A stretch of 64,000 nucleotides of DNA, taken from positions 16,614-80,613 of the forward strand of contig FR888502.1 in assembly GCA_000432155.1 (NCBI GenBank), given 5' to 3'. The position numbers and the translations under genes were made by a program. The notes under the pieces are model-generated. The model ran no database searches. It was given only the letters and a program-made list of their open reading frames with translations, and was not told where the DNA came from. Positions 2,953 to 62,484 of this stretch are shown here, in pieces. Source of the stretch: Eubacterium sp. CAG:274 (lineage in GTDB: Bacteria > Bacillota > Clostridia > Lachnospirales > CAG-274). Each line of letters starts with the position of its first letter. The first letter of the stretch is position 1.

Positions 2953-2990
2953 GGGGACACAGGGCAAATGCCTTGTGTCCCTTTTTTGTT
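2953..2990 (+). terminator. Intrinsic terminator after the M23 peptidase gene
   Basis: GGGACACAGGG-N7-CCTTGTGTCCC stem followed by a T-run. Confidence 0.6.
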
Positions 2991-3039
2991 ATAAAATTTT
3001 TAAGAAAACTTGAATTTAACTGGCATTTAATGTTTTTAC

Positions 3040-3068
3040 TTGTAAATATTGAAAAATTGTACTATAAT
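3040..3068 (+). promoter_or_regulatory. Sigma-A-type promoter (TTGTAA-17-TATAAT)
   Basis: -35 TTGTAA, 17-nt spacer and a perfect -10 TATAAT lie about 80 nt upstream of the 3149 start. Confidence 0.35.
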
Positions 3069-11977: not shown

Positions 11978-12008
11978 AATGAGTCGGAAAGATAAATCCG
12001 ATGGCTTG
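11978..12008 (+). repeat. Copy 1 of the 31-nt palindromic motif AATGAgTCGGAAAGATAAATCCGATGGCTTG
   Basis: Near-identical to 33348-33378 (1 mismatch). It contains the inverted repeat ATCGGA-N8-TCCGAT. Confidence 0.8.
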
Positions 12009-33347: not shown

Positions 33348-33378
33348 TAATGAATCGGAAAGATAAATCCGATGGCTT
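33348..33378 (+). repeat. Copy 2 of the 31-nt palindromic motif AATGAATCGGAAAGATAAATCCGATGGCTTG
   Basis: 30/31 identical to 11978-12008; lies directly downstream of the ftsH terminator. Confidence 0.8.
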
Positions 33379-33416: not shown

Positions 33417-33442
33417 GGTGAATCGGAAAGATAAATCCGATG
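33417..33442 (+). repeat. Copy 3 of the core motif GGTGAATCGGAAAGATAAATCCGATG
   Basis: The core 24 nt are identical to copies 1 and 2. It sits 20 nt upstream of the Spx/ArsC-family start. Confidence 0.8.
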
Positions 33443-42949: not shown

Positions 42950-45900
42950 GTGAATATATTTTATGATTTTTTAGACAGCAATAAAAATTATGACAGATTA
43001 AGAGATAGCATAAAAGAAAATAAAACTCCTGTTCTTGCCACAGGTGTTGTAGACGGTCAGAAAACTCATTTAATTGCCGGAATAACAAATGATGTTCATA
43101 AGTCAAATTTGGTCATTACACATTCAGAATTAAAGGCTAAAGAAATATATAATGATTTAAAATTCTTTTTAAAGGATAAAGTAGTTCTTTATCCGGCTAA
43201 GGATATAATTTTCTATTGGGCTGATGTAAAGTCTATGGATATTATAAAAGAAAGATTTAACATAATTTCAAGGCTTATAAATAATGAAGAAATAACAGTA
43301 GTTGTTACTGTTGAGGCTCTTTTTGACAGACTTGTATCTAAAAATATATTTGAAGATTTTGTTTTTGACATAAAGGTTGGAGATACCTACGATATAGATG
43401 AGCTATGTAAAAAGTTAGTTTTTATGGGCTATGAGCATAGTGATGTTGTAGAAGGTCAGGGTCAGTTTGCAAGGCGTGGTGGTATAGTTGATATATATTC
43501 AGCTGTAAATGAAAACCCTATACGATTGGACTTTTTTGATGAAGATGTAGATGCAATTAAAACTCTTGATGCCAAAACTCAAAGGTCTTTAGGCAATATT
43601 AGTGAGGCTAAAATTTATCCAATGAGAGAATTGGTATATAATGAGGAACAAGTAGAAATTGCTATAAAAAACATTGAAAAGGACTTAAATTCCTTTAAAA
43701 ATAAAACAGACAAAATAAAAATGCTTACTGATGAGGTAATAGAAAAATTAAGGGAGCAAAAGAGTTTTTCTGGAGTAGATAGATATATACAATATTTCTA
43801 CGATAAAACAGCAAGCCTTATAGACTATTTTCCAAAGGACAGTTGTTTCTATATTGATGAACCAAACAGAGTTAGAGAGCATGGAGATTTTATAATAAGA
43901 GAGTTTACCAATTCTATTGAAAATAGAATAGATAAAGGCTATATGTTGCCTAAACAGATAGAATTGGTATTTTCTTATGATGATTTGTTAAAACAGCTTA
44001 GCAAAAAGAATACGATACTTTTAAGCAATATTACCTATACATTAAAGGACTACAAGCCAAAAGAACTTGTAGAGTTTGCTGTCCGTTCAACTTCAATAGC
44101 CAAAAATGACCCAGATATGATGGCTGAGGATTTAATTTATATGTGCCAAAGACAGTACAAAATTATATTCCTTGCAGGTGGTCATACCAGAAGTGAAAGA
44201 ATATTAAAAGAGCTTTTGGATAGAAATGTAAATGCTGTTTATGTTGAAAATATAGACGGTGTAGAGCTTTCAGCTGGTATTGTTTATATTACAAGAGGTA
44301 GTTTAACCCATGGATTTGAATATCCGGAAGATAAATTGGCTATTGTAAGTGATAATGAGCTTTTTACACAGGAAAAGAAAAAGAAGAAAAAGAAAAAATC
44401 TAAAAATGGCAAGCCTATTGAAAGTTTTACAGACTTAAAAGTGGGAGATTATGTAGTTCACGAAAACCATGGTATTGGTGTGTATAGAGGTATTGAACAG
44501 ATAATAGCTGATGGTGTAAGCAAGGACTATATGAAAGTTGGCTATGCAAATGACGGTGTTATATATGTTTCAATAGACCAGATGAGCCTTGTGCAAAAAT
44601 ATATTGGTGGCGATGCTGCAAAGCCTAAATTAAACAAATTAGGTACAGTATCTTGGGAAAAGGCTAAAACTAAGGCAAGAAATGCCGTTAAAATTCTTGC
44701 ACAGGATTTAGTGGACTTATATGCTCAAAGACAGTCAGCAAGAGGTTATCAGTATTCGGCAGATACTGTATGGCAAAATGAATTTGAGGAGGCTTTTCCT
44801 TATGAGGAAACAGATGACCAGTTAAATGCTATTGCCGATTGTAAGAGAGATATGGAAAGTGGAAAGGTAATGGATAGACTTGTTTGTGGCGATGTTGGTT
44901 TTGGTAAAACAGAAGTAGCCATAAGAGCTGCTTTTAAAACTGTTCAAGACGGAAAACAGGTTGCATTCCTAGTTCCAACTACCATATTGGCAAAACAACA
45001 CTATAGCACATTTGCGTCAAGAATGGCCGATTTTCCTATTAATGTGGATATGCTAAGTAGATTTAGAACACCTAAACAGCAGAGAGAAACTATTGCCGGT
45101 ATTGAAAACGGTAGCGTTGATATAGTTGTTGGTACTCATAGACTTTTAAGCAAGGATATTAAGTTTAAAGATTTAGGTATGGTTATTGTTGATGAGGAAC
45201 AGCGATTTGGTGTTGCACATAAAGAAAAGTTAAAAGCACTTAGAAAAAATGTAAATGTACTTACACTTTCAGCAACTCCAATACCTAGAACACTTCATAT
45301 GTCTATGACAGGTATAAGAGATATGAGCCTTTTGGAAGAAGCTCCTAATGACAGACTTCCTATACAGACTTATGTTATGGAATACAATCCGGAGTTTGTA
45401 AAAGACGCAATATTGAGAGAGCTTGCAAGAAATGGACAGGTTTATTATCTTTACAACAGAGTGAGTAATATTGACGAGGTTGCAGCACAGATACAGGCTC
45501 TTGTACCAGAGGCAAATGTAGGTTTTGCTCATGGACAAATGAGTGAGAGAGAACTTGAAAATATTATGATGGAATTTTTGGATAATGAAATAAATGTTTT
45601 GGTATGTACTACAATTATTGAAACAGGTCTTGATATTTCAAATGCCAATACTATTATAATACAAGATGCCGACTGTATGGGACTTAGTCAGCTTTATCAG
45701 TTAAGAGGTAGAGTAGGGCGTTCTACAAGAACAAGTTATGCCTATTTAATGTATAGACAGGATAAGGTGTTGCACGAAGTTTCAGAAAAAAGACTTCAGA
45801 CAATAAAAGAATTTACTGAATTTGGTTCTGGTTTTAAAATTGCTATGAGAGATTTGGAAATCAGAGGTGCTGGTAATCTTTTAGGTGCTGAACAGCATGG

Positions 45901-46426
45901 TCATATGGATACAGTAGGTTATGAAATGTACTGTAAACTTTTAGATGAGGCTGTTAGAGAGTTAAAGGGCGAAAAGATTGAAGAAGATTTTGAAACCCTT
46001 ATTGAAATTAAGATTAATGCCTATATTCCTAATTCATATATTTCAAGCGAGTTCCAAAAACTTGAAATGTATAAGAAAATTTCACTTATAAATAATGAAA
46101 ATGACTACTATGATGTACAAGACGAGCTTTTGGATAGATATGGAGATTTACCTAGAGCTGTACAAAATCTTTTGGATATTGCTCTTGTAAAATCTAGTGT
46201 TCATACTTTGGGTGGCACTTCTATAGCACAGAGAAATGGCAAGGTGCTTATTAAGTTTAGAACGAAAAATAGTGTAAATGCTGAAAAGACAATGGCTCTT
46301 GTGGCTGAAAGCAAAGGTAAAATTATGGTTACAAGTGCCGGAGGAGATACAACTCTTTCTTATACAATTAAAAATGAAAATAATATTTTAAGTGAAATTA
46401 AAGATTTAGTAAAACAGATTATGTAA
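42950..46426 (+). CDS. mfd: Transcription-repair coupling factor
   Basis: 1158 aa with a UvrB-homology N-terminus, an RNAP-interacting domain, a DEAD/DEEQ helicase core (GDVGFGKTEVA, DEEQRFGV) and a TRG motif. Confidence 0.95.
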   Translation: MNIFYDFLDSNKNYDRLRDSIKENKTPVLATGVVDGQKTHLIAGITNDVHKSNLVITHSELKAKEIYNDLKFFLKDKVVLYPAKDIIFYWADVKSMDIIKERFNIISRLINNEEITVVVTVEALFDRLVSKNIFEDFVFDIKVGDTYDIDELCKKLVFMGYEHSDVVEGQGQFARRGGIVDIYSAVNENPIRLDFFDEDVDAIKTLDAKTQRSLGNISEAKIYPMRELVYNEEQVEIAIKNIEKDLNSFKNKTDKIKMLTDEVIEKLREQKSFSGVDRYIQYFYDKTASLIDYFPKDSCFYIDEPNRVREHGDFIIREFTNSIENRIDKGYMLPKQIELVFSYDDLLKQLSKKNTILLSNITYTLKDYKPKELVEFAVRSTSIAKNDPDMMAEDLIYMCQRQYKIIFLAGGHTRSERILKELLDRNVNAVYVENIDGVELSAGIVYITRGSLTHGFEYPEDKLAIVSDNELFTQEKKKKKKKKSKNGKPIESFTDLKVGDYVVHENHGIGVYRGIEQIIADGVSKDYMKVGYANDGVIYVSIDQMSLVQKYIGGDAAKPKLNKLGTVSWEKAKTKARNAVKILAQDLVDLYAQRQSARGYQYSADTVWQNEFEEAFPYEETDDQLNAIADCKRDMESGKVMDRLVCGDVGFGKTEVAIRAAFKTVQDGKQVAFLVPTTILAKQHYSTFASRMADFPINVDMLSRFRTPKQQRETIAGIENGSVDIVVGTHRLLSKDIKFKDLGMVIVDEEQRFGVAHKEKLKALRKNVNVLTLSATPIPRTLHMSMTGIRDMSLLEEAPNDRLPIQTYVMEYNPEFVKDAILRELARNGQVYYLYNRVSNIDEVAAQIQALVPEANVGFAHGQMSERELENIMMEFLDNEINVLVCTTIIETGLDISNANTIIIQDADCMGLSQLYQLRGRVGRSTRTSYAYLMYRQDKVLHEVSEKRLQTIKEFTEFGSGFKIAMRDLEIRGAGNLLGAEQHGHMDTVGYEMYCKLLDEAVRELKGEKIEEDFETLIEIKINAYIPNSYISSEFQKLEMYKKISLINNENDYYDVQDELLDRYGDLPRAVQNLLDIALVKSSVHTLGGTSIAQRNGKVLIKFRTKNSVNAEKTMALVAESKGKIMVTSAGGDTTLSYTIKNENNILSEIKDLVKQIM

Positions 46427-46428
46427 TA

Positions 46429-46464
46429 AAACAGCCGATACTGAAAAGGGTATCGGCTGTTTTG
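46429..46464 (+). terminator. Intrinsic terminator after mfd
   Basis: AAACAGCCGATA-N10-TATCGGCTGTTT followed by a T-run. Confidence 0.6.
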
Positions 46465-46522
46465 AAATAAATGTAAGAAAAAGGAAAACACAAAATAAAT
46501 AAAAGAAAAAATTATAAAAATA

Positions 46523-47390
46523 CCAAGGAGTATACAATACCTTTCTCTTACTGTAGTTATAATATACCATATACAAAGTCCAATAAATGGGATTTTAATA
46601 ACAAAAATAAAAAAATATTAAATAATCTAAAAAAGTCGATGTTCAAAATAACATCGACTTCTTTAGATATAAGAGAAAGGAAGTGTAACTAATAAAAATA
46701 AAAAATATACTAATATAAAATCTATATGAAAAATAATGAAGTACTATTATGAATTAAAAAAAATAACTAAAACCTCAAGGAGTATTTAGGTCCTTTCTCT
46801 TACTGTAATTATAATACCACATACAAAGTCCAATAAATGGGATTTTAATAATAAAAATTAAAAAAATGAAAAATATTAAATAATCTAAAAAAGTCGATGT
46901 TCAAAAAGACATCGACTTCTTTAGATATAAGAGAAAGGAAGTATAAGTAATAAAGATAAAAACTATAACTAATAAAAATCTATATGAAAAATAACGAAGT
47001 ACTATTATGAATTAAAAAATAACTAAAAACTCAAGGAGTATTTAGGTCCTTTCTCTTACTGTAATTATAATACCACATACAAAGTCCAATAAATGGGATT
47101 TTAATAATAAAAATTAAAAAAATGAAAAATATTAAATAATCTAAAAAAGTCGATGCGTTAATTTGTTCTGAAAGGTAAGAGAAAGGGAAAAAATAAATAA
47201 ATTAACTATAAAAAATTTTGTGTAAAGTTACACAAGAAAGGATAAAACATATTACAAACAAAAATAAATAAAATACAATACAAAGGAGTACTTATTACCT
47301 TTCTCTTACTGTAATTACAATATATCACATACAAAGTCCAATAAATGGGATTTTATCAATAAATTTTAAAAATTTATACTGTTTTTTCAT
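46523..47390. repeat. Tandem array of about 3.4 copies of a 250-256-bp non-coding unit
   Basis: Units begin at 46525, 46777, 47033 and 47283 (AAGGAGTA...). Each carries CCTTTCTCTTACTGTA...ACATACAAAGTCCAATAAATGGGATTTTA. Units A-C carry the inverted partner TAAGAGAAAGG; only A and B carry the perfect 10-bp hairpin GTCGATGTT-N-AACATCGAC, which is truncated in C. No ORF is conserved across units. Confidence 0.8.
47325..47390 (-). other. 21-codon sORF (MKKQYKFLKFIDKIPFIGLCM) with a strong RBS, overlapping the last repeat unit
   Basis: GGAGG 6 nt upstream of the ATG, immediately after the mtnN terminator. It is intact only in the partial fourth unit. Confidence 0.15.
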
Positions 47391-47402
47391 ATTAAACCTC
47401 CT

Positions 47403-47467
47403 AAAAATAAAAAAAGACAACAAATGTACTTGTCCGTCTGACATTGGACAAGTGACATTTATTGTCT
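47403..47467 (-). terminator. Long composite intrinsic terminator after mtnN
   Basis: Outer 13-bp stem AGACAA(C/T)AAATGT plus inner 8-bp stem ACTTGTCC/GGACAAGT, followed on the minus strand by TTTTTTTATTTTT. Confidence 0.5.
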
Positions 47468-47521: not shown

Positions 47522-48220
47522 TTATTTTAAAATTGTAAGCATATTATTTACAATATTACCAGCTGTTTTTGCAGATTCTCTAAAGAACTGTGCATAATCA
47601 ACATTTCCATCACCATCTGCTGTATCAGACATTACTCTTAAAATAACAAAAGGAATTTTGTTTAAGTAGCAAGCCTGAGCAATAGCTGCACCTTCCATTT
47701 CGCAACAAAGAGGGTTGAAAAGAGTTTGTATTCTATGCTTTGAATCTAAATCAGCAATAAATTGGTCTCCGCTGGCAATACGGCCTATATTAGGAACTAA
47801 ACCTAATTCCTCAACAGCATCTGTAGCAGCGTCAATAAGGTTAATATCAGCAGCAAAAATGCTTGTATCCATTCTTGAAATATAACCAGGTTCATCGCCT
47901 AAAGCACTTGTATCAAAGTCGTGCTGAATAGCATCAGAGGAAATAACAATATCGCCAACCTTGAGAGTACGGTCAATAGCACCAGCTACGCCTACATTTA
48001 TAACAGAGTCTACAGCAAAAATATCAATCAAAACCTGTGCACAAAGGGCAGCATTTACCTTTCCTATACCTGAACGCACAAGAACGATATTGTGAGATGA
48101 ACCCTCAACACTACCTACGAAGAAATCACAGCCAATTACATTTCTTGTAGTTACTACATTCATGGATTCCTTGAGGAGAGTAACCTCTTCTTCCATTGCT
48201 CCTATAATACCGATTGTCAT
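47522..48220 (-). CDS. mtnN: 5'-methylthioadenosine/S-adenosylhomocysteine nucleosidase
   Basis: MTIGIIGAMEEEV start, PNP/UDP phosphorylase family, 232 aa. Confidence 0.9.
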   Translation of the reverse strand: MTIGIIGAMEEEVTLLKESMNVVTTRNVIGCDFFVGSVEGSSHNIVLVRSGIGKVNAALCAQVLIDIFAVDSVINVGVAGAIDRTLKVGDIVISSDAIQHDFDTSALGDEPGYISRMDTSIFAADINLIDAATDAVEELGLVPNIGRIASGDQFIADLDSKHRIQTLFNPLCCEMEGAAIAQACYLNKIPFVILRVMSDTADGDGNVDYAQFFRESAKTAGNIVNNMLTILK

Positions 48221-62155: not shown

Positions 62156-62484
62156 TTTAATTCCTCCATAAAAAATAACTGTGGTAAATAAGATTGGGGC
62201 AAATTTACCTAAAAATGTTTTTTACGGGTATAAAAAAATCCCTGCCAAAGCAGGGACGATAATAACCGTGGTTCCACCCAAATTGCACATAAAAGTGCCA
62301 CTTGTCAGCCTTTAACGGAGCAAACCGTGCTTTATTAAAGCCACTCAGAGGTGGTTTTCATAGTTGTCATGCAAGGATAATCACAGCACCATATCCCTCT
62401 CTGAATACATATTGACAAAAATTACTGTCCTCATCACCGTTTTCAATTCAAATTTAATTATATCATCAAAATTTTAAAAGTCAA
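62156..62484 (-). promoter_or_regulatory. T-box leader (thrS)
   Basis: On the minus strand: promoter TTGACT-16-TATAAT; T-box sequence AATTTGGGTGGAACCACGG; terminator GTCCCTGC-TTTG-GCAGGGA plus U7. Confidence 0.8.

Follow-up and report, generated by a model that had tools for sequence, protein, structure and literature searches.

What, if anything, is encoded by the repetitive interval between the convergent genes mfd and mtnN of Eubacterium sp. CAG:274 is the question raised by the DNA considered here, a stretch of 64,000 nucleotides from contig FR888502.1 (assembly GCA_000432155.1) that is called the window below and to which all coordinates refer unless another locus is named. An original prediction, made from the letters alone, had described a tandem array at 46523-47390 and had offered three ideas for it, namely a row of small RNA (sRNA) genes, decayed type I toxin-antitoxin modules, or an amplified miniature inverted-repeat transposable element (MITE). 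The array is real, non-coding, and reads on the minus strand. Judged from comparisons between units, strains, and a sister species, it rather probably consists of four paralogous minus-strand copies of one lineage-specific small non-coding RNA gene, that is, of 'sibling' sRNAs. If transcribed, these would constitute an undescribed family of sRNAs in a human-gut Lachnospirales species that is very common yet uncultured; in other respects, this is an ordinary kind of regulatory element.

Architecture of the Array

The array extends head-to-tail on the minus strand from 46424 to 47420, between the 3' ends of mfd and mtnN. Both Tandem Repeats Finder (46540-47155, period 256, 2.4 copies, 93 % matches) and a repeat finder (n=4 copies with start-to-start distances of 250, 258, and 250 bp) recovered the tandem repeat where it had been predicted. 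A 25-mer, equivalent to the upstream box discussed below, occurs four times in the 64 kb window, always inside the array and with 0 occurrences expected by chance; its four copies had been foreseen, but not its variation, as the copy at 46569-46593 carries one mismatch and conspecific strains differ at several positions. The arm ACAGTAAGAGAAAGG (minus strand) is present in four exact copies, with partners at 46670-46680, 46928-46938, and 47175-47185 and a degenerate fourth one at 46473-46484, and hairpins of the form GTCGATG...CATCGAC are located at 46625-46668 and 46883-46926, each followed by T6 on the minus strand. As anticipated, no open reading frame (ORF) common to the units was found, nor any plus-strand ORF of at least 30 amino acids inside the array.

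Strand and phase of the units have to be revised. The original prediction had phased them on the plus strand, so that its inverted-repeat pair 'enclosing about 130 bp' brackets the promoter of one unit and the terminator of the neighbouring one. The arms and their partners exist, but they do not enclose that segment; on the minus strand, the helix that they form surrounds the RNA body. Read 5' to 3' on this strand, a unit comprises A+T-rich DNA, the box AAAATCCCATTTATTGGACTTTGTAT, an extended -10 element, (AC)AGTAAGAGAAAGG, seven variable nucleotides (N7), TACTCCTT, a variable U-rich body, CCTTTCTCTTA, a G+C-containing hairpin, and a T-run. A terminator scan likewise detected two strong minus-strand hairpins in the array (46668-46625 and 46926-46883, as compared to 0.1 expected in shuffled sequences). 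These belong to units B and C and comprise 18-19 bp followed by T6 on the minus strand, while their plus-strand tail is merely TTCTTTAG.

Unit C (46878-47099) has its box at 47099-47075, the extended -10 element TGGTATTAT at 47075-47067 with an overlapping TATAAT (47069-47064), the 5' arm at 47059-47048, a CUCCUU motif at 47038-47033, the 3' arm at 46939-46927, and the terminator at 46926-46883 plus T6. The same parts recur in unit B (46620-46843; box 46843-46819, extended -10 46819-46811 with TATAAT at 46813-46808, 5' arm 46803-46792, CUCCUU 46782-46777, 3' arm 46681-46669, terminator 46668-46625 plus T6). In unit A (46424-46593), the box with its single mismatch (46593-46569) precedes an extended -10 of the form TGGTATATT (46569-46561), the 5' arm (46551-46540), CUCCUU (46530-46525), and the 3' arm CCUUUUUCUUAC (46484-46473, one G.U pair), which is perfect (CCTTTCTCTTAC) in unit A of the conspecific locus L007; its terminator (46463-46428) is bidirectional and shared with the convergent mfd. 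For units B, C, and D, the enclosed RNA body measures about 110 nt, for unit A about 55 nt, and the bodies of the types A, B/C, and D have diverged past easy alignment.

Unit D (47138-47351) had been regarded as a partial last copy but is a full unit of divergent type, with box (47351-47327), extended -10 TGATATATT (47327-47319), 5' arm GUAAGAGAAAGG (47309-47298), CUCCUU (47288-47283), a weak A/U-rich hairpin with U-run (47235-47211), and 3' arm (47186-47175). The hairpin that had been reported as intact in two units and truncated in a third was found in exactly this state, and the truncation stems from a strain-specific deletion (junction 47157/47156) by which the tail of unit D became joined to a B/C-type terminator, of which only the 3' half is left. 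Compared with the conspecific loci L001-L010, in which unit D is longer, the window strain thereby lost an insert resembling a repetitive extragenic palindromic (REP) element together with the unit's own terminator. In L002-L010, unit D runs through the insert to that terminator, corresponding to a predicted RNA of about 248 nt, and a unit D terminator is present in most conspecific strains.

A Promoter-Like Region Upstream of Each Unit

Among 36 distinct upstream regions aligned from this and related loci (sister species included), all 36 contain either TGnTATATT, as in types A and D, or TGGTATTAT, as in B and C, and the distance from the box to this extended -10 element is constant. The box occupies the position expected for a -35 element. 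As a 2-nt indel between the unit types lies downstream of the -10 hexamer, the predicted start falls on the same CAG/GUAAG in all of them. Such conservation suggests that each copy has its own promoter. Transcription would begin about 7 nt 3' of the extended -10 element, at or just before GUAAGAGAAAGG, and yield RNAs of approximately 125-190 nt that end at the intrinsic terminator in units A-C. By eye, the box contains a direct repeat with 10-bp spacing, (A/C)TTTAT-N4-CTTT(G/A)T, and repeats spaced in this way are typical of response-regulator sites. By analogy to a known sRNA system (see below), expression is probably conditional, governed by a transcription factor that binds the box.

The same box could also be the functional entity itself, that is, a DNA-level element in which a repeated protein-binding site serves for regulator titration or a nucleoid or segregation function, the inverted repeats being incidental. 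Its recurrence every 250 bp or so, its internal direct repeat, and its rank among the segments best conserved between species would fit such a role, which we nevertheless regard as very unlikely. The box stands at a fixed distance from an extended -10 element and from the invariant GUAAGAGAAAGG, with a terminator in units A-C, and thus in the layout of a regulated promoter; it is more variable from strain to strain than the 5' arm of the RNA; no further copy was found in the 64-kb window; and in locus L035 it has been exchanged for a TTGACT -35 element with the RNA part retained. In this variant (approximately 2990-3060 of that locus), which lies near a contig end and may be a chimera, GCTTGACTTTTGTCGTT replaces the box and places the canonical TTGACT exactly 17 nt from TATTAT. 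Readings of the 25-mer as a sigma-54 or sporulation-sigma promoter were rejected by eye, as the required GG/GC spacing and the -10 motifs do not fit.

Predicted RNA Fold and a Candidate Seed

When folded from GUAAGAGAAAGG to the terminator, unit B reaches -48.5 kcal/mol (z = -7.4), C -48.9 (z = -7.2), and A -36.1 (z = -7.8). In these folds, the initial 12-13 nt are paired with the CCUUUCUCUUA segment directly 5' of the terminator, forming a closing helix of 13 bp in C; a helix of 12-13 bp is predicted for units A, B, C, and D as well as for a single-copy strain, and for the sister species with one bulged A. Over all loci, it is part of the minimum-energy fold in 40 of 43 distinct units, or 71 of 74 copies. 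The 5' arm is identical in every one of these 74 copies, while the 3' arm varies, always one-sidedly, at four positions: 1 (C/U), 2 (A/G), 7 (C/U), and 11 (C/U). All of these variants keep a G.U or U.G pair in the minus-strand RNA but would create A.C mismatches in a plus-strand RNA. The loop closed by this predicted helix contains a small hairpin and the long U-rich, poorly structured body.

In every unit of the species, nt 22-27 read CUCCUU, with a mean unpaired probability of 0.5-0.86, whereas the 5' arm is essentially always paired. Together with its context, CUCCUU(U/G)G, the motif resembles the anti-Shine-Dalgarno tail of 16S rRNA. The RNAs would probably act in trans, with the CUCCUU region pairing to Shine-Dalgarno (SD) regions of target mRNAs and blocking the initiation of translation.

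A different use of the same sequences would be a paired SD/anti-SD mimic, in which a near-ideal SD at the 5' end and a 3' arm copying the 16S tail titrate 30S subunits or SD sites globally. Such titration would follow from an opening of the closing helix or from early termination of unit D, which frees the 5' end, with the dosage set by the 1-5 copies. In some alleles, the 3' arm is indeed exactly CACCUCCUUUCU, the Firmicutes consensus for the 16S 3' tail (the comparison is with this consensus and not with the organism's own rRNA). However, this likeness is exact in some B-type alleles only and absent from A, D, and the sister species, so that it is probably a by-product of pairing with the purine-rich 5' arm, and we deem a global mimic very improbable. 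A 20-mer, TAAnTACnGTAAGAGAAAGG, was also encountered in unrelated metagenome contigs (L023, L029/L059, L039, L030/L066), directly 5' of a start codon. There, its AGAAAGG reads as an SD (with a clear promoter before it in L023), which is why the RNA 5' end can be called a near-ideal SD.

Distribution and Origin

The window belongs to a prevalent human-gut Lachnospirales lineage of metagenome-assembled genomes, 'uncultured Eubacterium sp. UMGS758'. Public assemblies contain its exact MtnN protein in 7,122 indexed blocks; the ten places listed are ENA metagenome assemblies, several of them labelled human gut. Named relatives of its Mfd at 56-58 % identity are those of [Clostridium] colinum and Tyzzerella, in agreement with a position in Lachnospirales. 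A scan of GTDB representatives with AGTAAGAGAAAGG-N5-9-TACTCCTT matched UMGS758 alone, which argues against a wider family at that stringency. A metagenome scan with TAANTACNGTAAGAGAAAGG returned 47 loci, of which 20 were true according to nhmmer and 27 were chance matches, those inspected being mostly the promoter plus ribosome-binding site (RBS) of unrelated genes. In all informative true loci, the element lies between mtnN and mfd and nowhere else. All ten of the conspecific loci carry the array, most with a unit D that is about 76 nt longer and includes a short dispersed repeat and a proper terminator. Copy numbers amount to one (L028, L046, L067), three (L011, L060), four (most loci), or five (L038), and L001 contains an additional promoter-less body.

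As to whether the unit is dispersed or unique, on which the MITE idea hinges, the locus is unique and confined to the conspecifics and the sister species. That an element bounded by the 12-bp inverted repeat GTAAGAGAAAGG/CCTTTCTCTTAC has amplified here is hardly credible, even if in every unit this repeat does frame a segment, which is about 55 bp long in A and about 110 bp in B, C, and D. There are no dispersed copies: the unit was found at the mtnN-mfd locus only, be it in the window, in the GTDB representative, or in the 20 of 20 true metagenome loci. Furthermore, no target-site duplications adjoin the arms, the repeat period runs from promoter to terminator and not from one inverted repeat to the next, and BLAST searches of phage and plasmid collections gave no match to the array. 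A retron reading was likewise dropped by eye, there being no adjacent reverse-transcriptase gene.

The sister species, seen at locus L012, has an MtnN of 92 % identity and exactly one unit (nhmmer E = 3e-12). This unit retains a box of about 81 % identity (our count from the aligned sequences), TGATATATT, GTAAGAGAAAGG with a 5' arm matching at 12/12 positions, a 3' arm that is complementary apart from one bulge, and a terminator (GTCGAT...ATCGAC) that also serves mfd. Between mtnN and the unit, L012 (6838-7975) encodes a cytidylate-kinase-like protein (207 aa) and a DUF2798 protein (173 aa), and as the DUF2798 stop codon is immediately followed by the unit, the latter could double as the operon's 3' untranslated region (UTR) in that species.

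These two genes also account for the 21-codon small ORF (sORF) that had suggested a decayed type I toxin-antitoxin module. It lies at 47325-47402 (minus strand), comprising a relic AGGAGG (47402-47397), an ATG (47390), and the sORF, and overlaps the upstream box of unit D. A good RBS and start codon 5' of unit D would suit a surviving toxin gene; the encoded 21-aa peptide shows, by eye, no long hydrophobic stretch. However, AGGAGGTTTAATATGAAAAAACAG of the window aligns with AGGAGGTTTTTATATGAAAAAAACAG of L012, i. e., with the RBS and start of the Cytidylate_kin2 gene for the P-loop protein of 207 aa beginning MKKTVITISRETGSGG, which identifies the sORF as a remnant left by the deletion of two genes. 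In L011 and L046, a premature stop cuts it to seven codons; in L001, L004, and L005, its RBS reads AGGATG instead of AGGAGG; and its ATG is missing from the other units owing to an 8-nt indel. A toxin gene is thus extremely unlikely.

In the history that we envisage, one ancestral copy of the RNA gene occupied the 3' end of a cmk-like/DUF2798 operon, which in turn converged on mfd, an arrangement that would survive in the sister species. In the window species, both operon genes would have been deleted with only an RBS and start codon left behind, and the RNA gene would then have been amplified by unequal recombination to between one and five copies among strains. The series from an operon-end copy in the sister species via single-copy strains to arrays of three to five copies may capture the birth of sibling sRNAs in progress, and its natural strains offer graded gene dosages with which the retention of redundant sRNAs by bacteria could be examined.

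Farther afield, the 3' flank of a 66 %-identical Mfd in L021 (7610-7700, minus strand) carries TGTGGTATTAT and, behind it, AGGAATTGAG ... CTTAATTCCT, which might pair into a closing helix of 10 bp ahead of the mfd terminator. This layout (TGTGGTATTAT, then AGGAAUUGAG...CUUAAUUCCU) is vaguely similar to that of a unit, but the similarity could not be substantiated and may reflect either a divergent analogue or chance.

Relation to Known Small RNAs

The RNA family is undescribed, while the kind of gene arrangement is familiar. In line with the original view that no annotated family could be named, a scan of the array against Rfam 15, which covers csRNA, LhrC, 6S, RsaE, and CsfG among others, gave no match above threshold; by E-value, the array of the window strain and that of the fuller strain L002 obtained only sub-threshold chance hits to microRNA models and a leader model.

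Functionally, the best analogy is offered by the CiaR-dependent sRNAs (csRNAs) of Streptococcus, from which both the pairing of CUCCUU(U/G)G with mRNA ribosome-binding sites and the role of the box as a regulator site are inferred. What made csRNA genes recognisable was the combination of a terminator with a promoter dependent on a regulator, and they carry anti-SD sequences (PMC3091779). They occur as two to six similar paralogs per genome, some of them in tandem (PMC3091779, PMC4211561), and each has its own promoter, in which the regulator site replaces the -35 element, and its own intrinsic terminator, parts that are predicted for the array as well. Moreover, an unpaired stretch complementary to the SD is thought to block translation initiation (PMC3091779, PMC4211561). 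Differences are nonetheless evident: in csRNAs, two stem-loops flank the unpaired region, whereas the array RNA would be closed by a long-range 5'/3' helix, and the hosts belong to lineages that differ at the phylum level, Streptococcus in one case and Lachnospirales in the other, where all copies lie in a single array whose length varies between strains. The CiaR box TTTAAG-N5-TTTAAG had no match in 46424-47420 with up to two mismatches, and as no target stands out in the window either, the array is not a csRNA array.

Several other sibling sRNAs invite comparison. LhrC1-5 are sibling sRNAs, several of them arranged head-to-tail at one locus, whose C/U-rich loop motifs bind the ribosome-binding regions of mRNAs and whose expression is controlled by a two-component system. 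They use repeated UCCC loop motifs, in contrast to the one CUCCUU and the sequestered CCUUUCUCUU arm of the array, and neither sequence nor Rfam similarity connects the two. The LhrC1-5 RNAs of Listeria monocytogenes are named in PMC13350326. Tandem siblings proposed to have arisen by gene duplication include OmrA/OmrB, PrrF1/PrrF2, and AbcR1/AbcR2, which resemble the array in being adjacent, with separate promoters and terminators, conserved ends, and divergent middles (PMC4211561). These pairs differ in being two-copy, Hfq-dependent, and proteobacterial with known regulons, while the array reaches up to five copies and is polymorphic within a species. DapZ and MicL are sRNAs derived from 3' UTRs with an internal promoter of their own. 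The sister-species unit resembles them in directly following the DUF2798 stop codon and sharing the operon's terminator; in the window species, by contrast, the parent operon was lost, and the unit is free-standing and amplified.

Weighing the Evidence

On the level of sequence, the first of the three original ideas, a tandem sRNA array, is supported by an extended -10 element in each unit, terminators in A-C, the closing helix, and the CUCCUU motif. Several observations weigh against it. Promoter, start site, and RNA ends are predictions, and a generic sigma-70 scan, which listed 15 promoter-like sites as compared to 10 expected in shuffled sequences, did not include the array promoters because they have no -35 match. 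Unit D of the window strain is without a strong terminator. While the closing helix was predicted in all four units of the window, the compensatory changes that had been proposed as a check on it did not appear as double changes; with an invariant 5' arm, support for the helix is of the wobble type only, and the four pairing-compatible events would arise by chance in roughly 5 % of cases according to our own estimate (made without a tool). Nor can folding energy tell the strands apart, as both fold strongly (z = -9.3 for the plus strand). The sister species has CCCUUU in place of CUCCUU, and in the 64-kb window the complement of the seed is not enriched (7 matches as compared to 6.1 expected) and no target stands out. 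The family does not extend beyond one species cluster and a single sister species, and a synteny walk found no unit beside relatives of MtnN (88 %, 70 %, and 68 % identity) or of Mfd (65-67 %). Finally, between the two species the unit body has diverged further than the flanking intergenic DNA (the mtnN terminator), so that conservation alone is no proof of selection.

Some of these points also speak for a functionless local duplication. In this scenario, the deleted cmk-like/DUF2798 operon left behind a 3' UTR/terminator segment that replication slippage or unequal crossing-over then multiplied, the promoter-like sequence being fortuitous and the copy number drifting. Copy number is in fact polymorphic (1-5, including single-copy strains), the locus is unstable, with deletions, the REP-like insertion, and a larger insertion or rearrangement, the family is young, lineage-restricted, and devoid of covariation, and A+T-rich DNA readily yields -10-like hexamers, as the above excess of 15 over 10 sites illustrates. 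What such a duplication explains poorly is the uneven conservation within units, in which the 5' arm is invariant, the -10 element is retained, and the 3' arm remains compatible with pairing while the bodies are scrambled. The same holds between species, as the sister species keeps box, -10 element, both arms, and terminator around a different body, and enough time has passed for types A, B/C, and D to become clearly distinct, yet the same functional-looking parts persist in all of them. We consequently judge a functionless duplication unlikely, though by no means negligible, and favour sibling sRNA genes.

Neighbouring Features and Minor Observations

The array is flanked on its downstream side by the convergent mfd (transcription-repair coupling factor; 42950-46426, plus strand; Pfam TRCF, CarD_TRCF_RID, and UvrB_inter), whose terminator is the one in common with unit A. 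Its upstream neighbour on the same strand is mtnN (5'-methylthioadenosine/S-adenosylhomocysteine nucleosidase; 47522-48220, minus strand; PF01048). The intrinsic terminator of mtnN (47409-47467, minus strand), a long hairpin AAGACAATAAATGTCACTTGTCC...GGACAAGTACATTTGTTGTCTT with a T-run, forms the upstream boundary of the array; its core (47427-47454) was found by the scan on the plus strand, and in the sister species the terminator is almost unchanged.

The short dispersed repeat (A)AGCCATCGGATTTATCTTTCCGATTCAT contains the hairpin ATCGGA-N8-TCCGAT, is often preceded by a GGCTTGCAAGCAAGCC-like hairpin, and looks like a REP-type element. Copies are located in the window at 11981-12003, 33352-33374, and 33420-33442 (all minus strand) and at 7094-7116 in L001-L010. 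They are intergenic and lie just 5' of terminators; one copy is situated within unit D in most strains and is deleted in the window strain. In L052 and L062 (minus orientation), two REP-like copies just 3' of unit D flank an insert of about 700 bp, beyond which synteny changes and neither further units nor mfd are seen. This insert suggests that the repeat is a hot spot of recombination or insertion. The sole Rfam family above the gathering threshold in the window is a T-box leader (RF00230, 112 bits) at 62249-62446 on the minus strand.

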